From: a virus
Taxonomy: Duplodnaviria > Caudoviricetes
Length of the DNA: 64,000 bases
Virus record (IMG/VR): IMGVR_UViG_3300028048_003175
Location: 33,849-97,848 of that record
Direction: 5' to 3' (one strand)
The notes beneath the pieces were generated by a model. That model did no database searches, was not told the origin of the DNA, and worked only from the letters and a program-made list of their open reading frames with translations. The translations under genes were made by a program, and so were the position numbers. Each line of letters opens with the position of its first letter. Position 1 is the first letter of the stretch. Shown piece by piece: positions 23,401 through 41,486 of this stretch.

Positions 23401-26400
23401 GTTCCTTGCTCGACATCGCAGAGACCGAGGGAGCACTCTACAAAATCAGTCTTGCAGGGCGCAGCAATACCGACACCGATAAGACGATCAAGACAACGGC
23501 AACTGACGGGACAGAATTGGAACTGGAGGTAATCGGTTCCAACTATTCAACCAACGGCTTTGTACCTGACACGTTTGGAACAGAGAAGAGCGGTGGTCGC
23601 ATGTCGTTGCGTGTGGCAGAGAATGTGAAAGCCGTATTTAACGACCAGCCATTCAAGAGTACGTCAATTCCTACAAATGGTTTGGCTCTCTCTATGACCT
23701 TCAAGGTTAAGAATATTGCAGACCGCAAGGCTCGCATCATCCGTTGTATGGGTGAGCGTCTCGGCTTCGTGCTGACGGGAGAGAAATTCTATGTCACGAC
23801 GAACGGAGATACTGACGAGGCATTGGCTTCTGTATTCACTACCGCTGCCACATCGTATCTTGATGACGTGGTATATCGCTTTGACATCGTGATAGAGCCG
23901 CAGTCAAGAGCACCATACAGTGGTGTCATGCTCTGCAAGGTGTTCCAGAATGGTGACATGGCTGCTTGTGTTCCTATCGATACGACCAGTGCTTTCCCGA
24001 ACTTCGACGACTTCATTCACTTTGACGGTACTGATGCAGACCTGTATCTGTACGAGATTGTCCGTTGGAACACTTACTACGACTTCATTCAAGCGTTCAA
24101 CAACTATATCGTGAACCTCACGGACACGCAGGCTATGCTTAAAGAGTATGAGCAGAACCGCGTTATGATAGACGTAACGGCTGAGGGTACCACAAAACCG
24201 CGTCCAGATATGCAGCGACTGATTGACCGTGGCGTGATGGTTTGTGTCGAGACAAGAACTTCAGACGCTAACTTGAGCAAAGATGGCTCTGCAGTAAGCG
24301 ATAGCGAGATATATTATCCAGACTATATCGAGAATATCAAGGATAAAAAGACTACCGTCATAATGGACTGGTATCTGTACTTCCCCGACCGTCCTTGGGC
24401 AGACTGCAAGATAGAGGCTATTCCTGTGACCAACCAAGGAACTTCGACCCTTGCTTATGCCATCAAGAACAAGAAGGGCAAGGCGAAGAAAGCCAAGCGT
24501 ATTGTCATGTTGCACACACGCGAAGAGGTGAGCCGCATGTACAATGGTGATGAGAACATTCTTGCGAAGTATGACGATGCAGTACGACTGGCTTCAAAGA
24601 AGAAGATTCGTATCAAGGACGGCAGCACCCCTATCAACACCATTACTATCAAGGTGGACTATTCTGACAGTGCAGGTGCCAACAACTGTGCGCTGATGGA
24701 GCAAATGAACGATGTACAGATTGCTTTGGGCAGGAACTACATGACACCTGCACAGATATTCAACACTGACAGTAGCGAGGAGCTGCACACCTCAATTGAT
24801 GGTATTACCTGCGCATTGTTCCGTACTGACTACCGTATCGGTCAAGACAAAGGCTCTGAGGCAGCAACACTTCCTGAGAACGCTTATTTCCACAGCAAGG
24901 CTAACTTCAATGCCGACAAGGGCAATCCCCATTTTTTCGGCTTTGAGGATGTGCCCGGCTACAACAAAGGCTGTGTGAACTATGGCGATTTCAAAGAGAT
25001 TGTTACACCGCGAGGAACCAACATCGATGATTACAAGGCTACGGTGCTGGCTGGTTCCGCAACACTTATTCCTGGCACTCTTTACATGATAAGTGAGTTC
25101 TGTGGTCCAGAAACGCGCTTCATAGAGAATGACGGAACAGGTGCCATGACAGAGACCGATGCCGTAGCAGAGTTCGAGGAGGTTGATAAGACAGGCGCTG
25201 AGATTGCTGCAGACGATGTAAGCGGTTACGACTGGGCAACAGTCTATCGCAGCACCGATAATAAGTACTACAAGTACGCAGGTGGTGTATGGCGCGATAC
25301 TACGGGCAGCATGACATACGACAGCAGCACCGGGAAGTGGGTGATTGTCGGAAGGGTGCTTAACCCAGTTGAGTGCTACGAGTACCGACAGTACCAGGAG
25401 TTCTGTTGGCAGCAGGGCGTGAACAGCGTTGATGATATGCTTGAAACGCTGCATACCGATGATGGCGATGTGCCTATCTGGTCAACATATTACGAGAGCC
25501 GTTATCCGGATGATGATGACTTGAACGACTTGTATGCACAGGGCAAGAAAGTACCTTACCAGTTGTTCCGTGAGCTGTTGTTCTGTCAGCAGTGTAATCA
25601 GAACCTCACCGACAATCAAGAGGAGAATGCCGCACTGAACCCCGATGGCAGCGAGAAAATCTTCAACGGTGCTGGTGCCAGTACTACGATAACCCTTGAT
25701 GGAAACACTGTAGCAGGAACTAAGGCTAACCGTCTGTTGAAGTGGCAGCACGAAATGCACAAGTATTACAATCCGTATTCCACAAACTGCTACATCGTAG
25801 GATCCGACTACAAGGCAACTGTTGACCAGCGAGCCAAGAATATGATGAAAGCAGTCTATAAGGAGACTGATGGCAGCATGCGTTTTTACTTCAACCACTG
25901 GTATGACGGTGATAGCGTTGACGAAGCAGACAATGACTGTTACCTGACCATTCCTTGGGACATGGACGCACGTTCAAGCCATCTCTATCAAGGGTGGGAC
26001 GGTGTGATGTTCCAGCAGACTTATGCGCTCTTTGAGCAGGGGAAGGGTGTCTGGATTGACAATGCCGGCACGCAGCTCACTCTCCATGATACGGCAGCAG
26101 CTATGCGAAATACAAAGACCAATGCAGGACTGGAGATTTTCAGTGCTGACGGTTGCTATCGCTACTGGATGACATACCGCATCTTGAAGTGGCCAAAGGT
26201 GGTGAGCAGTTTTGATGGAGAGCGTAAGTATATCGAAACAGCTACTGCAGCAGACAATCACTATCCGGCATTGCACGGATTGCGTCTTGAGAGTCTGCCA
26301 GCTTTCCAACGCAAGCGTTTCGCATATCGTGACGGTTACTTCCAGACAGGTGACCTGTTCAAGCACTTCTTCCAGGCGCGTGTGATGGGACCGATTACGG

Positions 26401-28913
26401 TTAAGATAACGGCAGCACAGGACGGTTACTTTGGTATGGGTGTTGATAGCACCAGCAGCGCAAAGTATTCGTGCTATCTGCAAGCAGGCGAGAGCCACAC
26501 CTTCACGGAAGCAGCAACCGGTGTCGGTGGTAAGCTGATTTACATCTTTGGTGCAGACAAGCTGAGCGAACTTGATTTGAGCGGCTGTACTCCGAAGAAC
26601 TCAAACTGGATGATTGCCGACTGCACCCTGTTAAGGAAACTGATCATCGGTGGCGCAAGCTATACTCCTGCTTATACTGATGATATTTTGTCAGCATTGA
26701 GCCTCGGACAGATGCCATTCCTGGAGGAGATAGACATAAGAAGTACACGAATTATGACGCTGAACGCAAGCGGTTGTCCTCGATTGAAGAAAGTGCTTGC
26801 AAGCGGCAGTCAGCTTCGCACGTTCACTCCTGCACAATCGTCACCGTTGCAGACAATCTCTCTTCCTGCAACCATGACGGACCTTATCTTTGTCAACCTC
26901 CCCAATATCGGCTATCCTAACGGTGGATTGACAATAGAGGGCTTGGCAAACGTGACACGTGTACAAGTGGCAGGTTGTCCGAAACTGGATGCCGTACAGT
27001 TGCTGTCTGATATTGTTTCAGCAAACGGAAGCATCAGCGAAATATCGCTGGAGGAGAAGAAGGTAACTGGCGACGTGGCTATTCTGCGTGCGTTGATTGC
27101 CAGCGGAGCAAAAGGATTCTCTTCAGACCTCACTACCGGCTGCGATGGTCTTAGCGGAAAGTGGATTCTGAACACGTTGATAGAGGACAGCGAGCTTGCG
27201 ACGATACGGGCTTACTTCCCACTTCTGACCGTCAGCAACTCATTGTATAGCGATTACAAGGAGTATGACCTCGAAAGCGACACTGAGAACGTTACGAACT
27301 TGGATAACCAGACTGGTTATGATTATAATAACGAGTACGTGCCAAGCGGCCATATCCTCAAGATACGCGCCAAAAGTGTTCCTGTGAAAGGTCAGTTCGA
27401 CAAGGTGACAAAAGCCATGACACTCACCAAATTGTCAGAGGAAAACTATAAGCAGTTCCCAGACGGTTCCGCTTTTGACAATACCGATGCTCTTGGTGAA
27501 GGCTATGACTGTTTCATCTACATTCCTAACTTCTACTACAAAGGTATCAACGACTTCAAGAGACAGGAGAAGCACACACTTTTGTCTGCCTTTGTCACTG
27601 AGCCGGAAGCCACATGGACGCAGAAGAAGGAGGGTGTCTTGTCTGAGCTCCTTTATGCTGACGCTTCTGGAATACCCATTGGCAGCATAAACGTGGGCGA
27701 TACATTCTCTGATGAGACGCATATTGCTATTCTGTCATCGTGTGCCGTGTATCGTCTCGATGTCGAGGGAATGAAGCAGGTTCGTTACATCGGTCTGAAT
27801 AATGCCACCTACGGCAGCATCTTCGTTGATAGTGAGGGAAAGGTGCTTCAGAAAGATGCTCTCTCGATAACAGGAACAACGGCATGTCCGCTGGACTTCA
27901 AGAACGAGAATGGTGACTATATCTATAGAGACGTGCCGACAGGTGCCAAGTGGATATACTTCACCTGCATCCGTGCGCTGTCTGATGAGGGTCATCCTGT
28001 CTTTGCCGTTGACAGTAGCGATATTGAGGCTATTGAGCCGGGCTGGGAGAAGCACTACTCTGAGGTGATAGGTATCTATGGCGCAAGTATAGATGACCTC
28101 GGCTTCATCCGTTCACTTTCCGGCAAGGTGACAAAGCGAGGCACTGGAACGAGCACCACATCATCGGAATGGACCTACGATGCCGACGGAATGCCGACCA
28201 ATCAGCCAGTTGGAGCCTTGAACTACACTGGACAGGACTTCTATAATCTCTGTTATCTGCGTGGAGAGGGTTATCATGATGTCAGCTACGACCAGAACAA
28301 GACCATTGCTATCCTCTCGAAGTGCTGGATAGGCGACCGAGACGACCAGGCGAAACACGGTATGGGTGTTTCCGCAGGCTATACCACTGGCCAACTTGAC
28401 AGTTATGGTAGCCATGATACCGCTTCCGGAATGAACAAGATCTGGAAGCTTGAGGCATGGGTGGCTTGTAACTGGGAGTTCATGGACTACGTCGGTGTGA
28501 ACATCAGCAGCTTCATCGAATGGAGAAGAAACAAACGTCCGCAGTCGGGTACGGTCGATGCTGTATGGCATATCTATGACCCACATACTAATACGGAGCG
28601 CACTGTGCAGGGTATAACTAATTCGGGTGTTTGTATCGCCCGTCTGAAGCATGGTCGTCACTGCGACATCATTGCGAGCAGTTGTAACTCTGACAGTAGC
28701 AGGTGGAATACCTGTTATGCAGCAGGTAATTACTATACAGCCACTGGTGGGCGCGTGGTTGGTCGTGCGCTCTACAATGCGGGTGCGTATGGCGGTTGCG
28801 TTTGTGCGGACGCGAGCTACGCTTCTTCGGGCTCGTATGCGTTCGTCGGTGCGCGTCTCGCCTTCAGCGGAAGATTCGCAAACGAAAGCGAAATAGACCC
28901 GGAGCTGCAGTAA
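20403..28913 (+). CDS. Giant multidomain virion/receptor-binding protein; DGR target with C-terminal CLec-type variable domain
   Basis: 2836 aa: N-terminal coiled coil, duplicated W.DFG module, Ig/LamG-like beta regions, CotH-kinase-like motifs, LRR-like repeats (LEEIDIRSTRIMTLNASGCPRLKKV), and terminal RVVGR...GARLAF containing the VR. Confidence 0.88.
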   Translation: MINVQELLGKVANNGATLAGILAYGEWNTLVQAVRELQGLVASDERLNNINTQLTALSDRITALKNEKDGEIAQVLQQINQTLQAILTEQGARQQGDAALQTAIDNMSDAFSDTIDALRDIVDGKATIVELSSYMTNNAQLPKNGLYVWHGNPVDSRMFTKSEGDTLWLVFCLRKGDDSDSNFGAGIRDCLVYSTDGDSDPFYYVGRYLNANIPADVQKAFGYDDMAKIVTINLSDYYPSLEESQNGYIALDEEELADIFETPSKAYALHDRRLRVITDESEYYGYPATMQYSGGNFHRLTVDMGTEILIISIPDEGASALAFSGNGAMRLISLTEIPAGTVTEDNLAAGVKTKLNKRDVIDVEWWFDPVPRRMYTPTKAGLYWYVPTEKQLLVSVETENSGVYEFVEVTPQGNTIYIDVDENIPYIWKDDDMSSIAPKKAPASIFNATNEVPISGYYVLCDDENESTSAVHAAWNAEKAVSGLIISFEIGAGIWKTYQYVGRTVTEVNWMNSDNWKDFGSLAAGSESYIVIDGLIGAPVAGEFYTLETAVARLVAYQQETGVTYAKKGLVISYRTAENVMETKQFQGEISGFGEVGLWKDFGGGSEVETSDEPEEGGTDALSTGGAYTHTPAGISVDTETEGVVKLKLVNAGGEDVGDEIQFPVGSGSGGGSGTTIAVAFRDNPFYGKAGGSFLVKAAIMSVTKAGSQETSNTITSVVFVNRTTKNTVASFNPRKASSATMSDYSFEFDLSNLGQSAGEIPLQAIITDDGGNTATKNLSMVAIDVTCVSVQTLNYTRETSLQVGGPRTSIPMYRFPNNASDRGIRTKIEIYKNNAWETLQEIVITDTYPHNVSIDPTGMGHGAYPIRIQGTDVASGTRGNILHTAVMVIEQREDVADYDKPIVVARWSDDTDGEVKLFETLQIDIACYQRSTNPTTVQVKITDETTGVSETISESAMYRNKYYTIEKRIVGYNNGDTLVFDAVCGLVSLPETREVHVNGSLLDIAETEGALYKISLAGRSNTDTDKTIKTTATDGTELELEVIGSNYSTNGFVPDTFGTEKSGGRMSLRVAENVKAVFNDQPFKSTSIPTNGLALSMTFKVKNIADRKARIIRCMGERLGFVLTGEKFYVTTNGDTDEALASVFTTAATSYLDDVVYRFDIVIEPQSRAPYSGVMLCKVFQNGDMAACVPIDTTSAFPNFDDFIHFDGTDADLYLYEIVRWNTYYDFIQAFNNYIVNLTDTQAMLKEYEQNRVMIDVTAEGTTKPRPDMQRLIDRGVMVCVETRTSDANLSKDGSAVSDSEIYYPDYIENIKDKKTTVIMDWYLYFPDRPWADCKIEAIPVTNQGTSTLAYAIKNKKGKAKKAKRIVMLHTREEVSRMYNGDENILAKYDDAVRLASKKKIRIKDGSTPINTITIKVDYSDSAGANNCALMEQMNDVQIALGRNYMTPAQIFNTDSSEELHTSIDGITCALFRTDYRIGQDKGSEAATLPENAYFHSKANFNADKGNPHFFGFEDVPGYNKGCVNYGDFKEIVTPRGTNIDDYKATVLAGSATLIPGTLYMISEFCGPETRFIENDGTGAMTETDAVAEFEEVDKTGAEIAADDVSGYDWATVYRSTDNKYYKYAGGVWRDTTGSMTYDSSTGKWVIVGRVLNPVECYEYRQYQEFCWQQGVNSVDDMLETLHTDDGDVPIWSTYYESRYPDDDDLNDLYAQGKKVPYQLFRELLFCQQCNQNLTDNQEENAALNPDGSEKIFNGAGASTTITLDGNTVAGTKANRLLKWQHEMHKYYNPYSTNCYIVGSDYKATVDQRAKNMMKAVYKETDGSMRFYFNHWYDGDSVDEADNDCYLTIPWDMDARSSHLYQGWDGVMFQQTYALFEQGKGVWIDNAGTQLTLHDTAAAMRNTKTNAGLEIFSADGCYRYWMTYRILKWPKVVSSFDGERKYIETATAADNHYPALHGLRLESLPAFQRKRFAYRDGYFQTGDLFKHFFQARVMGPITVKITAAQDGYFGMGVDSTSSAKYSCYLQAGESHTFTEAATGVGGKLIYIFGADKLSELDLSGCTPKNSNWMIADCTLLRKLIIGGASYTPAYTDDILSALSLGQMPFLEEIDIRSTRIMTLNASGCPRLKKVLASGSQLRTFTPAQSSPLQTISLPATMTDLIFVNLPNIGYPNGGLTIEGLANVTRVQVAGCPKLDAVQLLSDIVSANGSISEISLEEKKVTGDVAILRALIASGAKGFSSDLTTGCDGLSGKWILNTLIEDSELATIRAYFPLLTVSNSLYSDYKEYDLESDTENVTNLDNQTGYDYNNEYVPSGHILKIRAKSVPVKGQFDKVTKAMTLTKLSEENYKQFPDGSAFDNTDALGEGYDCFIYIPNFYYKGINDFKRQEKHTLLSAFVTEPEATWTQKKEGVLSELLYADASGIPIGSINVGDTFSDETHIAILSSCAVYRLDVEGMKQVRYIGLNNATYGSIFVDSEGKVLQKDALSITGTTACPLDFKNENGDYIYRDVPTGAKWIYFTCIRALSDEGHPVFAVDSSDIEAIEPGWEKHYSEVIGIYGASIDDLGFIRSLSGKVTKRGTGTSTTSSEWTYDADGMPTNQPVGALNYTGQDFYNLCYLRGEGYHDVSYDQNKTIAILSKCWIGDRDDQAKHGMGVSAGYTTGQLDSYGSHDTASGMNKIWKLEAWVACNWEFMDYVGVNISSFIEWRRNKRPQSGTVDAVWHIYDPHTNTERTVQGITNSGVCIARLKHGRHCDIIASSCNSDSSRWNTCYAAGNYYTATGGRVVGRALYNAGAYGGCVCADASYASSGSYAFVGARLAFSGRFANESEIDPELQ
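28750..28865 (+). repeat. DGR variable repeat (VR)
   Basis: Aligns without gaps to 29026-29141; 21 mismatches by hand count, each opposite a TR adenine. Confidence 0.95.
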
Positions 28914-28935
28914 GCAGCGCAAAACGTGGCACGTT

Positions 28936-28966
28936 GGGCAGGGGGAAAGAAAAAAGCCCCCTGCCC
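28936..28966 (+). other. GC-rich hairpin/cruciform downstream of the VR
   Basis: GGGCAGGGGG-(11-nt A-rich loop)-CCCCCTGCCC, a perfect 10-bp stem; adjacent near-palindrome AACGTG-G-CACGTT at 28923-28935. Confidence 0.75.
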
Positions 28967-29025
28967 CCGAGCCCCAAAAAACGTCCCCAAGTGTGAGGAT
29001 GAAAAAAGGTAGAGGACTTCCTCAT

Positions 29026-29141
29026 GGCGCGTGGTTGGTCGTGCGAACAACAATGCGAATGCGAATGGCGGTTGCGTTTATGCGAACGCGAACAACGCTT
29101 CTTCGAACTCGAATACGAACAACGGTGCGCGTCTCGCAAAC
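29026..29141 (+). ncRNA. DGR template repeat (TR), core of the template RNA
   Basis: AAC/AAT-rich copy of the VR, with 12 AAY codons in the target frame before the terminal GCAAAC; lies in a non-coding gap upstream of the RT. Confidence 0.93.
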
Positions 29142-29350
29142 AAGTTAATCAGCTCTATGGTGTATGCTTGCGTGACAGGCAATGACAATGGCTGACAAGT
29201 CCGAGCCTCGGCAACAGCAATTTCTCTCCAGTCTGCAAAGAAATGGAAAGAATTGGAAAGCGGAAAAACCAAAGGTGCAACCTATGATAGGTGAGTAAAC
29301 AAGGAATTGGCTGAAAGTCTTAACGGTTGCGGAATGAAGGATTATTCAGA

Positions 29351-30643
29351 ATGAGTAAAAGATACGGTCATATATTACCGCAAATCATCGATAGGCGAAA
29401 CATGGACGATGCCTTTGATGAGGTTGTAGGTGGCCTTGAGTCGAAAGAGCGTCGTGAGCACTATGAGGCACAAAGAGAGGATATTATATCACGGCTGACT
29501 GCCAAGATAGGCTCCGGCACCTTTCGAATCACTCATTACGAACAGTTCTGGGTACAAGACGGACCTAAGCGTAGGTTGATACAGTCGCCCAGTGTGAAAG
29601 ACAGAATAGGTTGCAATGCCGTGATGAGAGTGGTGGAGAAGTATATCTACCCGACTATCATCAAGACTTCTGCTGCAAGCATCAAAGGACGTGGCATGCA
29701 CAGACTATACCGTAAGATGCGGACGGACGTGCGCCATGACCGAGAGGGAACGAAGTACTTCTATATGTGCGACATCAGAAAGTTCTATGAGAGCGTAGAT
29801 CAAGACCTGACGTTTGAAATATTGAAGGGCTATATCAAAGACCCTGTGGTGCTGCCGATGCTGGAGAGTTTTATAAGACTCATGCCGAAAGGACTTTCCA
29901 TCGGATTGCGTTCTTCGCAGTGCTTCGGCAATATGCTCCTGTCAAAGATGGGTCACAGGCTAAAGGAGAAAGAGGGTGTTCGCTACCTTTATATCTACTG
30001 TGATGACATACGAGTGTATGGTGCAACGAAGAAGTGGCTTTGGCATATCCGAGACATCATTCACGAAGAGATAGAGGGTCTTGGACTGGAGATAAAGCCC
30101 AGTGAGGCAGTCAAGCCTACGACAGAGGGAAATGATTTCCTTGGGTATATCGACTATGGCGACCATTCGAGATTAAGAAAGAGAACAAAACAGAAAGCCG
30201 CACGGAAACTTGCCCGAATAAAGAGCCGTAAGCGCAGGCAGAAAATTATCGGTTCATTCAAGGGCATGGCGAAGTGGGGTGATTGTAAACATTTATATAG
30301 AACGCTAACAGGAAAAGACATGGAAGAGTTCAAAGACTTTGGGCTGCAGTATGTGGCAGATGATGGGAAAAAGCGGTTTGCTGGTGAGACGGTAAAGTTG
30401 CACCAGTTGACAAACATGCACATCAGCATCACAGATTTTGAAGAGAACGTAGATACTGCTAACGGCAAACGTACCCTGGTGTCATTTAAGTATGACAATG
30501 GGACTCCAGCCAAGTATTTCACTGCAGACAAGCAGCAGTTGTATTTCCTTAAACGACTGAGTGAAATGCACAAGATTCCGTTCGGTACAGTCATCAAAAG
30601 TGAGAGTTATGGAAACGGGAAGGTTCGATATATATTCACTTAA
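29351..30643 (+). CDS. DGR reverse transcriptase with C-terminal extension
   Basis: KRRLIQSP..KDRI, CDIRKFYESV, GLSIGLRSSQCFGN, YCDD, DFLGY. The RT core ends near 30315 and is followed in frame by ~107 extra aa. Confidence 0.93.
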   Translation: MSKRYGHILPQIIDRRNMDDAFDEVVGGLESKERREHYEAQREDIISRLTAKIGSGTFRITHYEQFWVQDGPKRRLIQSPSVKDRIGCNAVMRVVEKYIYPTIIKTSAASIKGRGMHRLYRKMRTDVRHDREGTKYFYMCDIRKFYESVDQDLTFEILKGYIKDPVVLPMLESFIRLMPKGLSIGLRSSQCFGNMLLSKMGHRLKEKEGVRYLYIYCDDIRVYGATKKWLWHIRDIIHEEIEGLGLEIKPSEAVKPTTEGNDFLGYIDYGDHSRLRKRTKQKAARKLARIKSRKRRQKIIGSFKGMAKWGDCKHLYRTLTGKDMEEFKDFGLQYVADDGKKRFAGETVKLHQLTNMHISITDFEENVDTANGKRTLVSFKYDNGTPAKYFTADKQQLYFLKRLSEMHKIPFGTVIKSESYGNGKVRYIFT

Positions 30644-31813: not shown

Positions 31814-32124
31814 AGTATATCTATAATGACTTCATCCCCTTCAAGGGGTACGCTGCCATGTGCATCGGAAACCTCGTGTTCGTCCGCAAGGGCGCAAGGG
31901 TGACCACCACCCTCATGAACCACGAGGCCATCCACTGCGCCCAGTGGAAAGAGTGTCTTTACATCTTCTTCCTGCCTCTCTATGTGCTGTCATTCATCTG
32001 GCAGTTCTTGAAGTGCTGGAACTGGAGTAAGGCATACCGTAACGTGTGTTTCGAGCGTGAAGCCTACGTCCACGAGAAGGAGCAAGGCTATCTGTCTCAC
32101 AGGGAGCGTTTCGCATGGGCGTGA
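31810..32124 (+). CDS. Small HExxH zinc-peptidase-like protein
   Basis: NHEAIHCAQ and FEREAY. Confidence 0.65.
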   Translation: MKYIYNDFIPFKGYAAMCIGNLVFVRKGARVTTTLMNHEAIHCAQWKECLYIFFLPLYVLSFIWQFLKCWNWSKAYRNVCFEREAYVHEKEQGYLSHRERFAWA

Positions 32125-32402
32125 TAGGATGCGTTTACAAGCCTCTGGAGGTGGAGGCTGTCGAAGTCACGGAGTCCAACTTCAAGGAAATCTGCGACTT
32201 CGTGGACGGTCACCACCCCCAGATGGCTGACAATCCGACAATGCCGAGAGGAAAGTATCTCGGTGTATTTATCGAGACGCGCTATGGGCGCCAGTTGGCA
32301 CGGTTAGGGGAGTATGTCGTCAAGGTGGGGGCAATGGATTACAGGACCTACACCCGTGACGAGTTTGTGAAAACGTTTAATCTTAAAATGAAGAATCAAT
32401 GA
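32115..32402 (+). CDS. Hypothetical phage protein
   Basis: Overlaps both neighbours; ARLGEYVVK...EFVKTF. Confidence 0.6.
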   Translation: MGVIGCVYKPLEVEAVEVTESNFKEICDFVDGHHPQMADNPTMPRGKYLGVFIETRYGRQLARLGEYVVKVGAMDYRTYTRDEFVKTFNLKMKNQ

Positions 32403-33127
32403 ACAGAAAATCAATTGCATTAGTCTTTGGAACGGCTCATGTTGACAGCACGCCGGGCAAGTGTGCGCCTGACGGCTCCATCCGTGAGGCTGTCTATTCC
32501 AGAGAAATCATAAAGGACCTTGTTGCGATTATGGAGAACACCTACGGCTTTTCCGTATTCACGGACTATATGCCTATGGAGCCTCTGCCAAAGTGGACTG
32601 AGGCACGGAAGCGCCTCGGCTATTCAAAGGGTGAGCAACCCTTGGAACTGGACCACCGTGTGCAGCAGGTCAACGCCATCTGTGACAAGTTCGGCAAGGA
32701 GAACACCCTTTTCGTCTCTATCCACCTCAACGGTGCCGGTGATGACGGCAAGTGGCATGGTGCTGGCGGTTGGTGCTGCTATACCACTCCTGGAAAGACC
32801 AAGTCGGACATTCTCGCAGAGTGTTTCTACGATGCAGCCTTTGAGAACCTGCGTCCGTATGTCACCATCATGGATGAGGGCAAGCGCAGGGGCGAATATA
32901 CTGAGAAGCAGACACCGTACCGCATGGATAAGAGGGACGGTGACAGGGACATGGAGGCAAACCTCTATGTGCTGCGCAAGACTGCCTGCCCTGCCGTGCT
33001 GACGGAGAACCTGTTCCAGGATAACCGCCTCGACGTGAAATTCCTCCTTTCCGAGGAAGGACGGCAGGCTATTACACGGCTGCATGTCGAAGGCATCCTC
33101 CGATATGTCGAAAAGACGTACAAGTAA
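32399..33127 (+). CDS. N-acetylmuramoyl-L-alanine amidase (Amidase_3) endolysin
   Basis: Zn-ligand motifs GTAH...E, FVSIHLN, LYVLRKTACPAVLTENLF. Confidence 0.88.
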   Translation: MNRKSIALVFGTAHVDSTPGKCAPDGSIREAVYSREIIKDLVAIMENTYGFSVFTDYMPMEPLPKWTEARKRLGYSKGEQPLELDHRVQQVNAICDKFGKENTLFVSIHLNGAGDDGKWHGAGGWCCYTTPGKTKSDILAECFYDAAFENLRPYVTIMDEGKRRGEYTEKQTPYRMDKRDGDRDMEANLYVLRKTACPAVLTENLFQDNRLDVKFLLSEEGRQAITRLHVEGILRYVEKTYK

Positions 33128-33174
33128 CTGAAAAAGAAGGTGCTGTTGATAAATTTCTCATTTGTATGAATGAC

Positions 33175-33207
33175 GGAGGCGTGGACGGGTTCCTCTGCCT
33201 CCTTTTT
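33175..33207 (+). terminator. Intrinsic terminator after the endolysin
   Basis: GGAGGC...GCCTCC followed by TTTTT. Confidence 0.7.
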
Positions 33208-33279
33208 CTCCAAAAATTCCGTTTTGGAGCCGCTTTTCAGCAAAAAAGTAATCATTTTCAGTTAAAAAGTAGTAAAAAC

Positions 33280-33310
33280 TACAATATTTTACAATATTTT
33301 CGTATATTTG
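33280..33310 (+). promoter_or_regulatory. Promoter of the pfs-luxS-metK operon
   Basis: TATATTTG -7 box at 33303-33310, preceded by tandem ACAATATTTT x2 (33281-33300) in an AT-rich gap. Confidence 0.6.
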
Positions 33311-33351
33311 CAACTGTTAATTTATCAAAACCCATCTAAAACGTATCTAAG

Positions 33352-33531
33352 ATGCAGAAAATGTCAGAATATCCCGAAAAGTCACTGCGAACGACTGGTA
33401 AGGCAGTTTTTCCAGAAATCGCAGGTGAAATGAAGCCCAAGAACCGCCGTTTTATGGGTGTCGTCGTATTCGGAGCTGACAAGAAGGGCTTTTCACGTCC
33501 TGTCTGCGCCAAGAGCCGCATAGAGGGGTAG
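33352..33531 (+). CDS. Possible 59-aa leader ORF (or structured 5' leader)
   Basis: MQKMSEYPEKSLRTTGKAVFPEIAGEMKPKNRRFMGVVVFGADKKGFSRPVCAKSRIEG between the promoter and pfs. Confidence 0.35.
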   Translation: MQKMSEYPEKSLRTTGKAVFPEIAGEMKPKNRRFMGVVVFGADKKGFSRPVCAKSRIEG

Positions 33532-33579
33532 TTTTCCATAATCACTATCTACTAACGTCAATAACACAATCAAAACAGT

Positions 33580-34308
33580 ATGAAAAAGATTGGAATCATA
33601 GTAGCGATGGATTTGGAGCTTCAAATGTTGCTGAATCGCATCGGCTGCAAGCCGGAGCCTGCCAACCCTGCAGGCGTAGTCATCTTTTCCGGGAAAATCG
33701 ACGACGATGATGTCATTATCTGCAAGTCCGGCATCGGCAAGGTCAATGCCGCCATCGCCACGGTGACGCTTATCACCCAGTACCAGCCAGACTACATCAT
33801 CAACACTGGTGTGGCTGGGTCTCTCGATCCAAATGTAGTAGCAATGGATATCATCATCGGTTCCAGCGTGAAGTACTGTGACGTGTGGTGTGGTAGTGGA
33901 AACGTTCGCGGACAGGTGCAGGGAGAGCCTGAATGGTACCCGTGCATCGATGTGAACATCAAGAGCAAGGGCATCGACAGCCTGCAGTACAAGTATATGA
34001 CCAAGAAGCACATCTGCGGTGTGCGCCGTGCTCCAATCGTGTCTGGTGACTGGTTCATGGAAACGGTAGCCGACAAACTGAAGGCCAGACGTGCCAGCGG
34101 ACGTGCCAAGGCTGTGGATATGGAGTCTGGAGCCATCGCACAGGTCTGCCATAGGTTCAACATGCCGTTCATCCCCGTCCGCATCATCAGCGATGTCGTT
34201 GGCGAGCCTCAGCATGAGAAGAAGTACGAAGGGTTCTGGCAGGACATGGCCAGCCGCTCCTTCGATATATTGATAGAGCTTATCAAGGAAATCAATGGAC
34301 AAGATTAA
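33580..34308 (+). CDS. mtnN: 5'-methylthioadenosine/S-adenosylhomocysteine nucleosidase (Pfs)
   Basis: GIIVAMDLE (catalytic Glu), SGIGKVNAA, INTGVAG, DMESGAIAQVC, RIISD. Confidence 0.92.
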   Translation: MKKIGIIVAMDLELQMLLNRIGCKPEPANPAGVVIFSGKIDDDDVIICKSGIGKVNAAIATVTLITQYQPDYIINTGVAGSLDPNVVAMDIIIGSSVKYCDVWCGSGNVRGQVQGEPEWYPCIDVNIKSKGIDSLQYKYMTKKHICGVRRAPIVSGDWFMETVADKLKARRASGRAKAVDMESGAIAQVCHRFNMPFIPVRIISDVVGEPQHEKKYEGFWQDMASRSFDILIELIKEINGQD

Positions 34309-34783
34309 GAGTTTTCAGATAGACCACACGAGGCTGCAGAGCGGTCTCTATGTGTCGCGCTTCGATCCTGCCAGGGAAGGTGCCGACCATGTTGTCACCA
34401 CCTTTGACATTCGCATCTGCAAGCCTTACCATGACCAGCCGATGGACGGCTGTGCCATGCACACCATCGAGCACCTTGGGGCAACGTTCCTGCGCACGAA
34501 GAGCTACTATGCCGACAGCATCATCTACTTCGGACCGATGGGGTGCCGAACAGGCTTCTACCTTATCATCGACGGCAAGTTGGACGTGGAAGATGTCAAG
34601 GGTACCGTGAAGGAAATGTTCGCATGGATAGCCACCTATGACGGTCCCATTCCTGGCTCTACGGTGCAGGAGTGCGGCAATGCCGAGTTCCACGATTTAC
34701 AGGAGGCGCGACGCATCGCCCATGAGTATTTCAACGGAACGCTCTGCAATCTCGACGAAACGAATACCATTTATCCAGAATAA
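34295..34783 (+). CDS. luxS: S-ribosylhomocysteine lyase (AI-2 synthase)
   Basis: SFQIDH, metal site HTIEH, GPMGCRTGFY (catalytic Cys), ECGN. Confidence 0.96.
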   Translation: MDKIKSFQIDHTRLQSGLYVSRFDPAREGADHVVTTFDIRICKPYHDQPMDGCAMHTIEHLGATFLRTKSYYADSIIYFGPMGCRTGFYLIIDGKLDVEDVKGTVKEMFAWIATYDGPIPGSTVQECGNAEFHDLQEARRIAHEYFNGTLCNLDETNTIYPE

Positions 34784-34785
34784 CA

Positions 34786-36042
34786 ATGAAGAGACTATTT
34801 ACATCAGAATCAGTTTCGGAAGGCCATCCCGACAAGATAGCCGACCAGATTAGTGATGCCATCCTCGACTACTATATCTGCCATGACGCAGACAGCCACG
34901 TCGGCTGTGAGACGTTCGTGACGACAGGGCAAGTGGTCGTAGGCGGTGAAGTGAAGTCACGCGCAACGGCTCCCGTGCAGGATATCGTTCGCAGGGTTAT
35001 CAAACAGATTGGCTACGACAAGGCTTGTTATGGCTTTGCTGCAGATGCCGTCGGCATCCTGAACGCCATGCATCAGCAGTCCCCAGATATCGCACAGGGT
35101 GTGGAGTCGAAGGAGCAGGGTGCCGGTGACCAGGGAATGATGTTCGGCTATGCCACTGGCGAGACGCCAGCGTTCATCCCGTTCCCCCTCTATCTCTCAC
35201 ACCTCATCGTGAAGACCCTCAGCGATATCCGCAAGAAGAAGCTCGGCATGATGGAGTACCTGCGTCCGGACAGCAAGGCACAGGTGACGGTAGAGACCGA
35301 TGAGGACGGTCGAACTATCCGCATCGACACTGTTGTTGTCAGTACCCAGCATGACGTGTTCGCCCAGAGCGACGGACAGATGCAGTCAATGATAGCCCAT
35401 GACATCAAGGCCATCGTGTTCCCTGCAGTATTGTCACAGATACCAGAGGGACGCTGCAAGGAGATAGCCCGTCAGCTATTGGGTGACGACTACAAGCTGC
35501 TGGTGAACCCCACAGGACGTTTCGTTATCGGAGGTCCTGCAGGCGACAGCGGACTGACAGGCAGAAAGATCATCGTTGACACCTACGGAGGCTATGCCCC
35601 TCATGGCGGTGGCGCGTTCAGCGGTAAAGACCCCTCGAAGGTTGACCGCAGCGCGGCATACATGGGTCGCTACCTCGCCAAGAACCTCGTAGCTGCTGGA
35701 GTGGCTGACGAGGTGACGATACAGCTTGCCTACGCCATCGGTGTGGCACAGCCCGTCAGCGTGTGTGTTAAGACGAAAGGCAACAATACCAGCCTCAGCG
35801 ACACGGAGATTGCCGAGCATATCGTCAAGCTCTTCGACCTCTCTCCGAGAGCCATCACCATTAGGCTGAACCTGAATACCCCAATCTATGAAGAGACGGC
35901 AGCATACGGTCACTTCGGTCGTGAGCGTAAGGTTGTCACCAAGAACATTGGAGGACTGACAGGACAGGTGGTACTCTTCCCATGGGAGGCTCTTGACATT
36001 ACTGAAATGCTGATGGTCCACTTTCAGAACTTTATGAAATAA
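34786..36042 (+). CDS. metK: S-adenosylmethionine synthetase
   Basis: FTSESVSEGHPDK, GAGDQG, GLTGRKIIVDTYGG, GGGAFSGKDPSKVDRSAAY, TAAYGHFGR. Confidence 0.97.
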   Translation: MKRLFTSESVSEGHPDKIADQISDAILDYYICHDADSHVGCETFVTTGQVVVGGEVKSRATAPVQDIVRRVIKQIGYDKACYGFAADAVGILNAMHQQSPDIAQGVESKEQGAGDQGMMFGYATGETPAFIPFPLYLSHLIVKTLSDIRKKKLGMMEYLRPDSKAQVTVETDEDGRTIRIDTVVVSTQHDVFAQSDGQMQSMIAHDIKAIVFPAVLSQIPEGRCKEIARQLLGDDYKLLVNPTGRFVIGGPAGDSGLTGRKIIVDTYGGYAPHGGGAFSGKDPSKVDRSAAYMGRYLAKNLVAAGVADEVTIQLAYAIGVAQPVSVCVKTKGNNTSLSDTEIAEHIVKLFDLSPRAITIRLNLNTPIYEETAAYGHFGRERKVVTKNIGGLTGQVVLFPWEALDITEMLMVHFQNFMK

Positions 36043-36064
36043 CCCCTTTTTTCATTATACCATT

Positions 36065-36766
36065 ATGAAGAAGTTTATTTTCATGGGCCTCTTGCTGGCG
36101 ATAGTCAGTATGATGGCTACGGGCTGCAGCTCTTGCCAGTCCGAGAACACAAAGCAAGGCGACGTTGGCGTCCAGGCAGTGGAGGATGCCAGTGTTCAGT
36201 TGGCTACGGCTAAGGCCGTGCTGGGCGACTTCACTGCGGTAGCTGCTGCCGACAATGCCGGCGAGCTGGTTGCGGAGCGCGTGATGGCCACCGACCGTGA
36301 GTGGACGTTCCTACACGTCGGGGAAGGCTATACATGGTTTGAGACTGAGGTGAAGTATGCCAAGAAGCTGAATGACCCTGAGCAGACTGGAGAGATAGCA
36401 CAGATACGAAACATCTTCCAGAAAGCGACACCAGTTGGGAAAGGCTACGATGTAAAAGTTTACCAGGCTATCACAACGAAGGCAGGAACCGTCTATCAAG
36501 ACAAGGAAGACTTTTGGATAGAGGACTACCCGTTGAACGAAGTCAAGATCAATCTCACATTCAAGGAGGCGTATGACAGGCTCATGGCGGCGAACATCAT
36601 CAAGCCGGATGGGAGCTACTGCGTTCTACGACTACCCATAGGTCCCGACCCTGACCAGCATTCTGTTTATATCTTCGGCAATAAACGAGCCGGGATGGTC
36701 GTAGTGGATGCAGTGACAGGGGAGGTGTCCGCATACTTAGGCGCTCCTTTGGGAGAGTGGCCATAA
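36065..36766 (+). CDS. Lipoprotein with a PepSY-like C-terminus
   Basis: Signal peptide ending in MATG|C; C-terminal VVVDAVTGEV; starts 22 nt after metK. Confidence 0.7.
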   Translation: MKKFIFMGLLLAIVSMMATGCSSCQSENTKQGDVGVQAVEDASVQLATAKAVLGDFTAVAAADNAGELVAERVMATDREWTFLHVGEGYTWFETEVKYAKKLNDPEQTGEIAQIRNIFQKATPVGKGYDVKVYQAITTKAGTVYQDKEDFWIEDYPLNEVKINLTFKEAYDRLMAANIIKPDGSYCVLRLPIGPDPDQHSVYIFGNKRAGMVVVDAVTGEVSAYLGAPLGEWP

Positions 36767-36802
36767 TAGCTAATAGGAAAGCCATAAATTTATAATAATA
36801 AC

Positions 36803-36853
36803 GAGGCGGCAAGATGGTACTGCTCTTCATGTTTCAGTGCTTTCTTCCGCCTC
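36803..36853 (+). other. Long imperfect hairpin upstream of the holin
   Basis: GAGGCGGCAAGATGGTACTG...CAGTGCTTTCTTCCGCCTC (~18 paired positions); no clean U-tract. Confidence 0.5.
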
Positions 36854-36906
36854 ATTCCATTTTCCCTCACTGTGAAGGGTTAATTTTGCAGAAAGAACAT
36901 ATAAGC

Positions 36907-37506
36907 ATGAACATCATCTTAGCATCTATACAGCGTTTTCTCGCCACCTACGGGTGGGCTTCTAATAAGGAATTTATGTTGTCATTATTCCCATCGGCAA
37001 AGTACGGCACAATGGGCGGTACCATCAGCTTCGCCGCCGTCTCGGCATTCTTCGTGCAGTACCTCGGTATCAGTCCGGCACTGATACCGGCTCTTGTCGT
37101 CATCATCGCTACGGAACTCTGGACGGGCATCCGTGCCAGCCGTAAGCGCAAGGAGGATTTCGAGTCGCGCAAGTTCAGCCGCTTCGTCATCAAGTTCTGT
37201 GTATGGATGGTGCTGTTCTATACCACGCACAGCTTCATGAATGAATACAGGGCGCAAGAGACACTGGTGCAGATCCTCTCCTTTACATTCTTCGAGGTGC
37301 TGAAGTCTTTCCTGATGTCGCTGTTCGTCGTGGAGAATGCAACGAGCATACTGGAGAACCTTGCCGTACTGGACGGAAAGCCCAAGGCTACCTACGTCAA
37401 CAAGCTAAAGGAGTTGTTCAATGCTTTCTTCTCGACACTAAAAGGTGTATTCTCAAAGACAGCAGACAGCTACAAATCCAAAAACGAGAAAAGCGATGAA
37501 AAGTAG
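36907..37506 (+). CDS. Holin (phage holin 4-like)
   Basis: Several TM segments; ELWTGIRAS...FESRKF and ENATSILENL; basic C-terminus. Confidence 0.75.
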   Translation: MNIILASIQRFLATYGWASNKEFMLSLFPSAKYGTMGGTISFAAVSAFFVQYLGISPALIPALVVIIATELWTGIRASRKRKEDFESRKFSRFVIKFCVWMVLFYTTHSFMNEYRAQETLVQILSFTFFEVLKSFLMSLFVVENATSILENLAVLDGKPKATYVNKLKELFNAFFSTLKGVFSKTADSYKSKNEKSDEK

Positions 37507-38107
37507 ATTTGACTTTTTCATGCCGCTGCTGGTGGTACTCATCATCGGCCTGGCATATTCCACATACCGCCTCCACAAAGAGTGCAAGGCGTTGAAGCAG
37601 AAAGCCACTCAGTTGGAGAATACTGCCGCCAACATCGGGCAGGCTCCGCAGTCGTCCACGGTGGTAAAGACCGACAAGGGCGATATCACTGTCGTCACTA
37701 CTGAGCCATTGAAGGCTACGGAGAAAGTGATTGAGTCCCGTCATAAGGAGGACGTGAAAATCGCTCAGAATGTTGGCGTGAAGGCTAAGGACATCGACGA
37801 GCTTTCCCATATTGGGATAACCACTGGTGACAGCGTCACGGTTCCCGTCAAGGTGGAGCCGTTCGGTGGACTGACCGCATCCTATGAGGATGACTACACC
37901 CGTATCGATGTCAGCATTGACACAGCGAAGGTCGCCACCATCGAGTACGAAATGAGTGACGACATTGTGGTCGTTAATTCCAGGAAACGCCATAGCATCC
38001 TCTTCGGGCTTATCAAGTGGAAAGGTAAAGTAAAAAAAGTACAAGCATACTCGAAGAATCCCAAGGCGACTGTCAAGTCCGTGGAGGTCATCGAGCGACT
38101 GGAATAA
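37496..38107 (+). CDS. Membrane-anchored coiled-coil protein, spanin-like (DUF6549-like)
   Basis: N-terminal TM, coiled coil, then KRHSILFGLIKW...SKNP; follows the holin. Confidence 0.55.
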   Translation: MKSRFDFFMPLLVVLIIGLAYSTYRLHKECKALKQKATQLENTAANIGQAPQSSTVVKTDKGDITVVTTEPLKATEKVIESRHKEDVKIAQNVGVKAKDIDELSHIGITTGDSVTVPVKVEPFGGLTASYEDDYTRIDVSIDTAKVATIEYEMSDDIVVVNSRKRHSILFGLIKWKGKVKKVQAYSKNPKATVKSVEVIERLE

Positions 38108-38256
38108 GACAACTTCGGTTTTCTTGCGTTCTTGTCTTGCAGGCCTGCCCTGCCACCATCGACAGGGTGAGGCTCCCAGAGAATAACAGCAAATGTTTTT
38201 CATAGATGTTTTAGGTTAGTAGTAGTAATTTATAGTTTTAGGTTTTTAGTTAGGGA

Positions 38257-38291
38257 AGGCCGTCCGCAGGGATGCAGGCGGTCTTTTTTTT
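38257..38291 (+). terminator. Intrinsic terminator ending the late/lysis unit
   Basis: AGGCCGTC...GGCGGTCT plus a T-run. Confidence 0.8.
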
Positions 38292-38296
38292 GCGCT

Positions 38297-38427
38297 GGTT
38301 TGCAAATACGATTAACAAGGTTTAACGAATAAGATTAAAAATATAACCGTAATTTCTTGCATATTTGATTATTTCTTTGTATCTTTGTCGTAGCAAATAA
38401 GATAATAATCAATTTAAGAACGGAACA
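38297..38427 (+). promoter_or_regulatory. Repeated promoter/operator element, copy 1 of 5
   Basis: Invariant TTGATTATTTCTTTGTATCTTTG (38365-38387, containing -7 TATCTTTG) and GCAAATAAGATAATAAT. Confidence 0.88.
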
Positions 38428-40389: not shown

Positions 40390-40617
40390 ATGGCTAAGAG
40401 CGAAGAATACAAAGTACCTGTGAAATTCATCTTCGAGGGTGAGTTCATCGTAAAGGCTAACAGTGCCGCCGAGGCTCGTGACATTGTGAGCGACGAGTGC
40501 CATCTGGTCATGGGCCAGAGTATTGAGTGTCATGCTGACGAGGTTTCTGACTGGGACTTCGACATGCACTCCGAGAAAGTCATTGGAAGGGTTACACGAA
40601 ATGTTTATAGACTATGA
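40390..40617 (+). CDS. Small acidic hypothetical protein
   Basis: VKANSAAEARDIV pattern common in small phage proteins. Confidence 0.65.
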   Translation: MAKSEEYKVPVKFIFEGEFIVKANSAAEARDIVSDECHLVMGQSIECHADEVSDWDFDMHSEKVIGRVTRNVYRL

Positions 40618-41486
40618 GCGACTATATTTGCGGTACTGAGCTCCGTGAGTTCGAGAAGCAGTTCAACCACATCGTGAACGTGACGCACCATGACCATATC
40701 ACGGTGTTCGATGACCTGCTGACGTACATCATCACGGCATTCAATCCGGACCCGTACGAAAATCCCCATTGGAAGTACACCAAGGAGCAGAACCAGCTTT
40801 TCTATCTCCTGATGGTAGAGTGGCTGAATGTCATGCAGCGGATGATAAATGCGCGAGGCTGGTATGATGCCTTTGGCGACTTCTTCATGTCGAATGTCGG
40901 CAAGACGTCACAGCAGTACAAGGGACAGTTCTTCACCCCTCACACCACCTGCGACTTCATGGCAAGGATATCGCTGGATGACAGGGATGAGGTGACGGAG
41001 CCACGTGTGACGTGTAACGGCTTTGGCAAGCGAGTGGTGGTCAACGACTGCTCCTGTGGCTCTGCCAGACTCCTGCTGGCTGCTCATGCCGTCAACTGTG
41101 AGCGCAACACCAGGGCTTGCTATTTCATTGGTGAGGACATCGACCGTATCTGCTGTAAGATGGCTGCAATAAATATGTGCGTCCACGGCATGTTCGGCGA
41201 GGTTGTCTGCCACAATACTCTCACGGAGCCTCACAAGGCGAACTTCGGTTACATCATCAATGAGGGGTTATACCCCTTCCCTGGTTGTCCCACCATCCGC
41301 TACTTCGATGACGATCCTCTGCGATTTGTCTCTACGAAGGCTGCAATGGGGTGGCTTGCTGAGGCTGGAAAGAAGCGCGAGGTGAACCATAAGGTGACGG
41401 AGGTAGAGAAGAACCTCGTCCCTGTCGTTGAGGAACAGCCAGACAAGAGGAAAATCCCAGAACAACTGACATTAAATTTCTTCTGA
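40614..41486 (+). CDS. N6-adenine MTase-like (HsdM/N6_Mtase) protein lacking a clear NPPY/F motif
   Basis: GQFFTP, VNDCSCGSARLL (motif I), GEDIDRICCKMAAINM; no motif IV after HNTL. Confidence 0.75.
   Translation: MSDYICGTELREFEKQFNHIVNVTHHDHITVFDDLLTYIITAFNPDPYENPHWKYTKEQNQLFYLLMVEWLNVMQRMINARGWYDAFGDFFMSNVGKTSQQYKGQFFTPHTTCDFMARISLDDRDEVTEPRVTCNGFGKRVVVNDCSCGSARLLLAAHAVNCERNTRACYFIGEDIDRICCKMAAINMCVHGMFGEVVCHNTLTEPHKANFGYIINEGLYPFPGCPTIRYFDDDPLRFVSTKAAMGWLAEAGKKREVNHKVTEVEKNLVPVVEEQPDKRKIPEQLTLNFF

Follow-up and report, generated by a model that had tools for sequence, protein, structure and literature searches.

A chromosomal pfs-luxS pair is known in Porphyromonas gingivalis, and Borrelia burgdorferi carries a pfs-metK-luxS operon. 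The pfs, metK and luxS genes of B. burgdorferi are mentioned in PMC4570706. In viruses, metK, mtnN (pfs) and luxS have been catalogued previously, including luxS together with mtnN on one genome and including Prevotella-associated viruses (Kieft et al. 2021, bioRxiv 10.1101/2021.01.05.425418), and a single viral LuxS has been reported from digesters (PMC13644194). Here we describe a pfs-luxS-metK cassette in a 64,000-nucleotide stretch of phage DNA (the window), which comprises bases 33849-97848 of the 97,848-bp IMG/VR record IMGVR_UViG_3300028048_003175, classed as a provirus and estimated to be complete. Judged from sequence and context, we give a probability of roughly 0.55 to the reading that the cassette acts as a booster of the S-adenosylmethionine (SAM) cycle in lytic growth, as a long-kept lysis-module accessory of large (~60-140 kb) ruminant-gut Bacteroidales phages that bear a diversity-generating retroelement. 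A preliminary description of the locus had noted that single genes of this kind are reported as phage auxiliary genes, which the catalogue of Kieft et al. bears out; the same catalogue narrows the novelty that the description claimed. Our literature search brought up no account of the three genes as an operon, of their constant position within the lysis module or of phage-specific clades of their proteins.

The cassette consists of three enzyme genes, which lie on the + strand like nearly all genes of the window:

33580-34308, + strand: pfs (mtnN), methylthioadenosine/S-adenosylhomocysteine (MTA/SAH) and 5'-deoxyadenosine nucleosidase (PNP_UDP_1, 3e-38; TIGR01704)
34295-34783, + strand: luxS, S-ribosylhomocysteine lyase (PF02664, 1.7e-49, 168 bits against a cut-off of 27; NF002604)
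34786-36042, + strand: metK, methionine adenosyltransferase, that is SAM synthetase (TIGR01034; three Pfam MetK domains)

The luxS gene overlaps pfs by 14 nt and metK starts after a 2-nt gap, and on recheck these coordinates and spacings matched the preliminary description exactly. All three proteins pass the curated equivalog cut-offs of NCBI: Pfs scores 143 bits with TIGR01704 (cut-off 73.8) over residues 3-238 of 242, LuxS 177.5 bits with NF002604 (cut-off 158) and MetK 476 bits with TIGR01034 (cut-off 309). The best solved-structure matches of Pfs are all MTA/SAH nucleosidases, and in the comparison with chain 4gmh_A (AMEEE with AMDLE, EME with DME, SD with SD) it keeps the equivalents of Glu12, Glu174 and Asp197, which we take to be the catalytic residues of this family by E. 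coli numbering; the serine of its 'TGSAG' motif is changed to valine. In LuxS, H56, E59 and H60 (HTIEH), Cys84 and Cys127, comprising the metal ligands and the catalytic cysteine in GPMGC, are invariant in our alignment A1, and the MetK motifs GHPDK, GAGDQG and GGGAFSGKD are intact in the alignment to 7r3b. The intact catalytic motifs seen at first inspection are thus present in all three proteins. The identity of the genes and the integrity of the predicted active sites are clear, and we infer from them that all three proteins are active enzymes.

The setting of the cassette is that of a lysis module:

32399-33127, + strand: Amidase_3 endolysin, upstream flank of the cassette (Pfam PF01520, 4.9e-14; PHROG 435, endolysin)
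33175-33208, + strand: hairpin and T-run, the terminator behind the endolysin gene (fold -16.4 kcal/mol, z -1.76)
36814-37506, + strand: holin Phage_holin_4_1, downstream flank of the cassette (Pfam PF05105, 2.1e-11)
37484-38107, + strand: DUF6549 protein, the final gene of the lysis unit (Pfam PF20186, 1.2e-10), its start adopted from the gene call of an independent ENA contig

Host-type metabolic genes are therefore bounded by phage genes on both sides, with the endolysin on the 5' side and the holin, the DUF6549 gene and phage early genes on the 3' side, as had been stated before. The endolysin resembles those of Porphyromonas phages, and its terminator is kept in three related loci (L007, L150 and L184) with altered stem letters.

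The preliminary description had named two findings that would speak against a phage-borne operon, a chimeric join at ~33.2 or ~36.8 kb and a near-identical host locus combined with absence from related phages; neither is what we found. Contigs from two independent runs of cattle and sheep material span 32000-34832/34836 and 35559-38359 and bridge both joins. The gene order is identical in an independent contig (ENA, 96.6 kb) of this phage, and no fewer than six studies, apart from the one that is probably the source, contain the stretch in their gut metagenomes of cattle and sheep. The cassette occupies the same slot in seven or more related phage contexts, and the order endolysin, small open reading frame (ORF), pfs, luxS, metK and holin/DUF6549 recurs in L002, L007, L150-152, L153/154, L184 and the independent ENA contig. 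In L156, the cassette lies 1.5 kb 3' of the endolysin and is followed by PRTRC genes instead of a holin. The type of the neighbouring endolysin switches among Amidase_3, GH19, GH108 and Amidase_2. Scans of viral contigs with single neighbouring phage proteins added little; one was empty and the other returned only the record of L007.

The cassette proteins share 66-84% amino-acid identity with those of L002, L007, L150-152 and L184, and 49-69% with those of the deeper relatives L153/154 and L156. Their divergence follows that of the adjacent phage genes. In the less saturated pairs, the non-synonymous substitution rate relative to the synonymous rate (dN/dS) of the cassette genes is 0.07-0.17, similar to or lower than that of adjacent phage genes; it is 0.071 for pfs and 0.092 for metK between L007 and L184 (dS 0.4-0.5), and 0.17 for luxS between L002 and L007 (dS 0.97). 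Two natural variants are known to us from this set. In L155, pfs and metK are kept and three other genes replace luxS; these replacements (L155:3383-4970) encode 106, 225 and 181 aa and have no Pfam match. In L156, a gene of the Sequestin family (PF21825) lies between luxS and metK (L156:4258-4503), with PRTRC genes just 3' of the unit; Sequestin has been described as an anti-Thoeris sponge for 3' cyclic ADP-ribose (bioRxiv 10.1101/2025.07.12.664507). A 'broken luxS' in L184 turned out to be a scaffold gap of Ns and no mutation. The comparison of synteny and trees with host copies that the preliminary description had proposed thus gives the same slot in relatives, phage clades and purifying selection, and by these comparisons the cassette is truly phage-borne, vertically inherited and under purifying selection.

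Regarding the origin of the genes, the MetK matches among 5.8 billion proteins fall into tiers of 76-83%, of 62-69% and then of at most 60% identity. Every context that we inspected in the two upper tiers is this phage type, and the tier at or below 60% includes named Bacteroidota, the nearest non-phage MetK being at most 60% identical. The phage MetK proteins form one clade of 38 rows (support 97), of which all sampled contexts are phage. For LuxS, no bacterial protein is more than 56% identical, either among the best 80 of more than 600 scan matches or in the search of the order Bacteroidales. In a concatenated tree of Pfs and LuxS, the window group has support 100 and a long stem (0.97), and it is nested in a clade (support 99) that also holds chromosomal pfs-luxS pairs of Bacteroidales and a second group of phages, in which the gene order is metK-pfs-luxS. 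The sister relation of the two phage groups, with a support of 90, is not decisive. The history of the cassette is likely to have been the capture of a Bacteroidales pfs-luxS pair and the addition of metK, followed by long vertical descent in phages.

We examined 36 viral LuxS loci for linked genes. All three genes are found together in 13, two in the order of the window and 11 in another order; a clear metK homologue lies within 6 kb in 18, five of them without pfs; one (L108) has only a weak metK match (32%) 5 kb away, and one has pfs only. The most constant partner of viral luxS is thus metK. In the bacterial set, made up of the 80 best of more than 600 LuxS loci, metK is close to luxS just once, in a prophage of the second type that belongs to a Prevotella metagenome-assembled genome; none of the chromosomal Bacteroidales pfs-luxS pairs (L173-L179) has metK beside it. 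The linkage to metK looks phage-specific in these samples, and it fits a theme of SAM flux rather than one of signalling.

Three further elements bear on how the cassette is expressed:

33281-33310, + strand: cassette promoter, two tandem 10-bp repeats ACAATATTTT (33281-33300) followed by a -7 box TATATTTG (33303-33310)
33352-33531, + strand: decayed remnant of a conserved 78-80-aa ORF, of which the first ~27 residues are alike before the frame is lost
36065-36766, + strand: 233-aa lipoprotein with a signal peptide and the lipobox MATGC in its translation, between metK and the holin

The -7 box matches TAnnTTTG, the consensus of Bacteroidota promoters. It is invariant in eight related loci (alignment A2), where it lies 40-45 nt ahead of the first ORF, and the window contains the promoter element only once, with 0 occurrences expected by chance. 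The preliminary description had placed an own -7 promoter behind the endolysin terminator, and so it is found. Its delimitation of the operon holds for the three enzyme genes; the decayed ORF and the lipoprotein gene had been overlooked. A search of the 270-nt leader for a riboswitch with Rfam gave nothing above chance, the sole match being SurA at E 0.27. We also observed that the unit of ~10 bp, in two or three tandem copies just 5' of the -7 box in the window (33281-33300) and at the aligned positions in L153, L155 and L156, varies by sub-lineage (ACAATATTTT versus TGATTATAWA). This difference suggests a putative binding site that co-evolves with a regulator.

The extent of the transcript appears to differ among the relatives. 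In L150 and L002, the end of metK is followed by a terminator of its own and by another -7 box, and in L153 by a hairpin plus T-run; on these predicted signals, the cassette forms a self-contained unit in those relatives. In the window, we found no terminator between metK and the holin: neither the 22 nt behind metK nor the 47 nt behind the lipoprotein gene contain a hairpin. The unit seems to extend across the lipoprotein, holin and DUF6549 genes. Of the two marks of a moron, the window hence has one, a promoter of its own, and lacks the other, a terminator behind the final gene of the cassette. One sheep-gut RNA library contains a 4807-nt contig that reaches from 33443 to 38255 with a depth of 52.8, and an upstream contig of the same library stops at 33318, just past the predicted promoter, with a depth of 10.9. 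As assembled contigs of a single study, and not reads, these give a weak hint of a transcript that starts at the predicted promoter and ends after the DUF6549 gene. Only parts of metK and of the lipoprotein gene, at a depth of ~4, were obtained from RNA run X20, from which no conclusion was drawn.

A Pfam census of the record, covering ORFs of at least 60-70 aa and leaving out the giant structural ORFs, gave two candidate consumers of SAM in the window:

40614-41486, + strand: DNA methyltransferase of the N6_Mtase type that likely consumes SAM (45.6 bits with Pfam PF02384, cut-off 20.4)
59785-60741, + strand: DUF1848 protein that may consume SAM and has a radical-SAM-like cysteine cluster in its C-terminal part (Pfam PF08902, 283 bits)

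The N6_Mtase gene sits 4.6 kb 3' of the cassette and is kept 3-5 kb 3' of it in L007, L150, L184 and the P0006 contig. A second methyltransferase gene, of the N6_N4_Mtase type, is encoded at G000:22237-23148. The DUF1848 protein shows a weak Radical_SAM match at its C-terminal end. The preliminary description had stated that the window holds no methionine synthase; we found none of the MetE type in the whole 97.8-kb record, MetH not having been searched.

For the host background, the type of promoter, the position in the tree and the closest named relatives all indicate the Bacteroidales. Host-order searches were centred on G002, a genuine Bacteroidales genome with nine SusD proteins. Of 151 species genomes of the order, 10 were found to have LuxS, and AhcY was found in 43 of 51, the AhcY-negative genomes including four with LuxS; most potential hosts therefore take the one-step AhcY route and have no LuxS. 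The LuxS-bearing genomes G002, G319, G325 and G332, all of the order of G002, fall among those without AhcY, which is the classic either-or of the two SAH routes. A first comparison around G001 (L040, 'uncultured Prevotella') was discarded, as this genome has no SusD and Firmicutes-like MetK and LuxS and belongs to a non-Bacteroidota order. The same absence of SusD and the same Firmicutes-like proteins were seen in G003 (L062, 'uncultured Bacteroides'), and the labels of both genomes are probably wrong.

Taken together, a booster of the SAM cycle would work as follows. MetK would convert methionine and ATP to SAM, and Pfs would irreversibly split SAH, the product inhibitor of methyltransferases, as well as, by the known specificity of its family, 5'-deoxyadenosine, an inhibitor of radical-SAM enzymes. 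LuxS would then convert S-ribosylhomocysteine to homocysteine, to be re-methylated by the host, and the released 4,5-dihydroxy-2,3-pentanedione (DPD), which gives rise to autoinducer-2 (AI-2), would be a by-product. The likely beneficiaries are the two DNA methyltransferases of the phage and its radical-SAM-like DUF1848 protein. In most Bacteroidales, with their reversible one-step AhcY reaction and no LuxS, the cassette could provide a second, irreversible sink for SAH. We likewise infer when the genes would be expressed and which process of the phage would benefit.

Several observations weigh against this reading. In 16 of the 36 viral LuxS loci neither pfs nor metK lies within 6 kb, and for this reason LuxS by itself may be of value to phages. 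Pfs alone would relieve inhibition by SAH, so that the retention of luxS needs an extra reason, either homocysteine recycling or AI-2. The methyltransferase neighbour was not seen within the available flanks of the deeper relatives L153, L155 and L156. The apparent co-transcription with the holin seems to imply late expression, with methylation finished late, before packaging. Moreover, the actual host may be of the AhcY type or of the LuxS type.

Among the three models offered in the preliminary description, the evidence leans to the supply of SAM and the removal of SAH for phage enzymes; AI-2 emission is left without a phage sensor, and the rebuilding of SAM against a defence with one contextual hint. 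The idea that AI-2 output is the selected function supposes that infected or lysogenic cells emit DPD/AI-2, altering the behaviour of the community or biofilm or the decisions of phages and prophages, while Pfs and MetK feed LuxS. As LuxS is rare in true Bacteroidales (10/151), the phage would confer a new capacity. The purifying selection on luxS (dN/dS 0.14-0.17) and the 16 viral loci with LuxS and without nearby partners agree with this idea, and the induction of prophages by AI-2 has been reported for gut bacteria (PMC4338201). However, luxS is dispensable in one relative, L155, which has lost it and retains pfs and metK, close linkage to metK is unnecessary for signalling, and expression in a lysogen is unlikely since the unit appears to continue into the holin. 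Moreover, within the ORFs covered by the census, no Pfam domain of an AI-2 receptor or regulator (periplasmic-binding LuxP/LsrB-type, dCache or LsrR) was found, and many ORFs of the record are without any Pfam match, leaving room for a novel sensor. We consider a selected AI-2 output improbable, and slightly more so the fuller proposal that the cassette is kept for AI-2 emission, that part of the rumen AI-2 reports phage infection and that neighbouring cells or prophages respond to it. If it were true, hosts of an order in which ~9/10 of the species lack LuxS and use AhcY would become temporary sources of AI-2 through an abundant phage lineage of the ruminant gut.

We would attach only small probability to a role in counter-defence or competition, in which the module rebuilds SAM after its destruction by the SAM lyase of a rival phage or its consumption by SAM-consuming immunity such as type III CRISPR signalling with SAM-AMP, by analogy with the reconstitution of NAD+ by phages. 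The Sequestin gene between luxS and metK in L156 means that the slot accepts anti-defence cargo, SAM-AMP signalling has been described in Bacteroides fragilis (PMC10600005), and an own promoter, together with an own terminator in relatives, is common for accessory genes. Against this, our literature search yielded neither a SAM-depleting defence system nor counter-defence by a phage MetK, and extra SAM would help, and not impede, SAM-dependent host defences such as BREX and type I restriction-modification (bioRxiv 10.1101/2023.02.27.530186). The sole hint remains one insertion in one relative.

Equally small is the chance that the cassette serves the salvage of methionine and organosulfur compounds, where a faster turnover of methionine, SAM and homocysteine would supply sulfur amino acids, adenine or sulfide for virions. 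Kieft et al. placed viral metK, mtnN and luxS in a funnel from methionine to homocysteine and cysteine, with dN/dS <1 (bioRxiv 10.1101/2021.01.05.425418), and the adenine freed by Pfs can be salvaged. The record was found to hold no genes for a MetE-type methionine synthase, for the cystathionine pathway or for sulfide production, however, and the cassette uses up methionine and ATP and makes neither, while the co-resident methyltransferases are a more direct use of its product. Finally, that the cassette is an assembly chimera or a recent neutral host fragment without phage function, for which only the provirus class of the record and the rate at which viral bins are generally contaminated with host DNA speak, is refuted by the joins bridged at 32000-34832 and 35559-38359 in independent cattle and sheep runs, by the same order in the 96.6-kb ENA contig and the presence of the stretch in at least six other studies, and by synteny in diverged relatives, purifying selection and the lack of any bacterial copy more than 60% identical.

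Of the two elements that had been overlooked, the small ORF is intact (78-80 aa, MKQIxFKEANKSL...VVTCW...WERLK.LFTGK) and precedes pfs in L002, L007, L150, L153, L155 and L156. Its coordinates are L150:4556-4792, L153:4574-4816, L155:2311-2547 and L156:2804-3043, and it overlaps pfs by 4 nt in L150, L153 and L156. It has no Pfam match, and the ESM Atlas gives only viral clusters of hypothetical proteins. The 233-aa lipoprotein has no match in Pfam, PHROG or NCBIfam; its AlphaFold2 model is of moderate quality (mean pLDDT 59.9) and found no fold match with Foldseek against the PDB (TM-scores at most 0.21). In L002, L007 and L184 its homologues are found 5' of the lysin, and in L116 (L116:5341-5916) a homologue separates metK from luxS. 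The arrangement metK-lipoprotein-holin was thus seen in the window and the P0006 contig, and metK-lipoprotein-luxS in L116.

The window also holds a diversity-generating retroelement (20403-30643), consisting of a 2836-aa ORF (20403-28913), an RT-3 RNA motif (29147-29330; Rfam 56 bits, cut-off 40.5) and a reverse transcriptase of the RVT_1 family (29327-30643). In L155, a reverse transcriptase and bAvd adjoin the endolysin. The early region in the part of the record outside the window (G000:C1:1-34000) encodes a PRTRC set (PRTRC_E, Prok_Ub, Prok-E2_D and ThiF) as well as a DNA polymerase III beta clamp, SNF2 and DEAD helicases, a dUTPase and the N6_N4 methyltransferase. Despite the provirus class, families of tyrosine or serine recombinases (integrases) had no match anywhere in the record.

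Provided that the enzymes work, hosts that mostly lack LuxS receive a complete path of SAM synthesis and an irreversible disposal of SAH from a phage lineage that is abundant in the cattle and sheep gut. This would give a model, open to test, of how the cost of heavy DNA modification is met by large phages, and a concrete means to ask whether infection by phages contributes AI-2, an interspecies signal, unnoticed to gut communities. Ready comparisons are offered by the conserved promoter, by the constant slot in the lysis module and by the natural variants (L155 without luxS, and L156 with its anti-Thoeris sponge).

Among the described systems, the viral genes catalogued by Kieft et al. (2021) are like those of the window in that the same three enzyme families occur on gut and rumen phage contigs with dN/dS <1. 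In contrast to the window, the catalogue consists of single genes and pairs and holds no three-gene operon, lysis-module slot, conserved promoter or phage clade; on two of its rumen contigs that we checked, luxS and metK are ~200 genes apart. It proposes sulfide production or methionine degradation, and not the support of phage methylation. The chromosomal Bacteroidales pairs (L173-L179) share with the window the order pfs-then-luxS, the orientation and the common clade, which points to the donor group; they differ by their low identity (42-47% in LuxS, 33-42% in Pfs), by having no adjacent metK and by lying outside a lysis module. The operon of B. burgdorferi, which we compared by its description only, likewise links the three genes without a methionine synthase, but it is located on a spirochaete chromosome and has another gene order.

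The second phage type, in which metK-pfs-luxS accompanies an Amidase_2 endolysin, is represented by L003-L006, L096-L110 and a prophage in Prevotella sp. RGIG4051 (L026). It resembles the window in placing the three genes beside an endolysin and in the Pfs and LuxS proteins that form the sister group. Its gene order is different, however, the identities are 56-60% (MetK), 37-41% (Pfs) and 48-50% (LuxS), its MetK belongs to a different clade and its flanking genes have no match to the flanking proteins of the window. A SAM synthetase is likewise encoded by isolated or curated phages, for example Faecalibacterium phage FP_Brigit, Streptococcus phage Javan29 and Helicobacter phage Pt11061_1. Their hosts belong to other phyla, the DNA identity is 68-74% over short stretches, and no Pfs or LuxS is annotated under the matches themselves, neighbouring genes being outside that look. 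Phage T3 with its SAM lyase also manipulates the SAM pool of the host, but in the opposite direction: it destroys SAM and blocks MetK in order to disarm restriction-modification and BREX (bioRxiv 10.1101/2023.02.27.530186), whereas the cassette of the window would replenish SAM.

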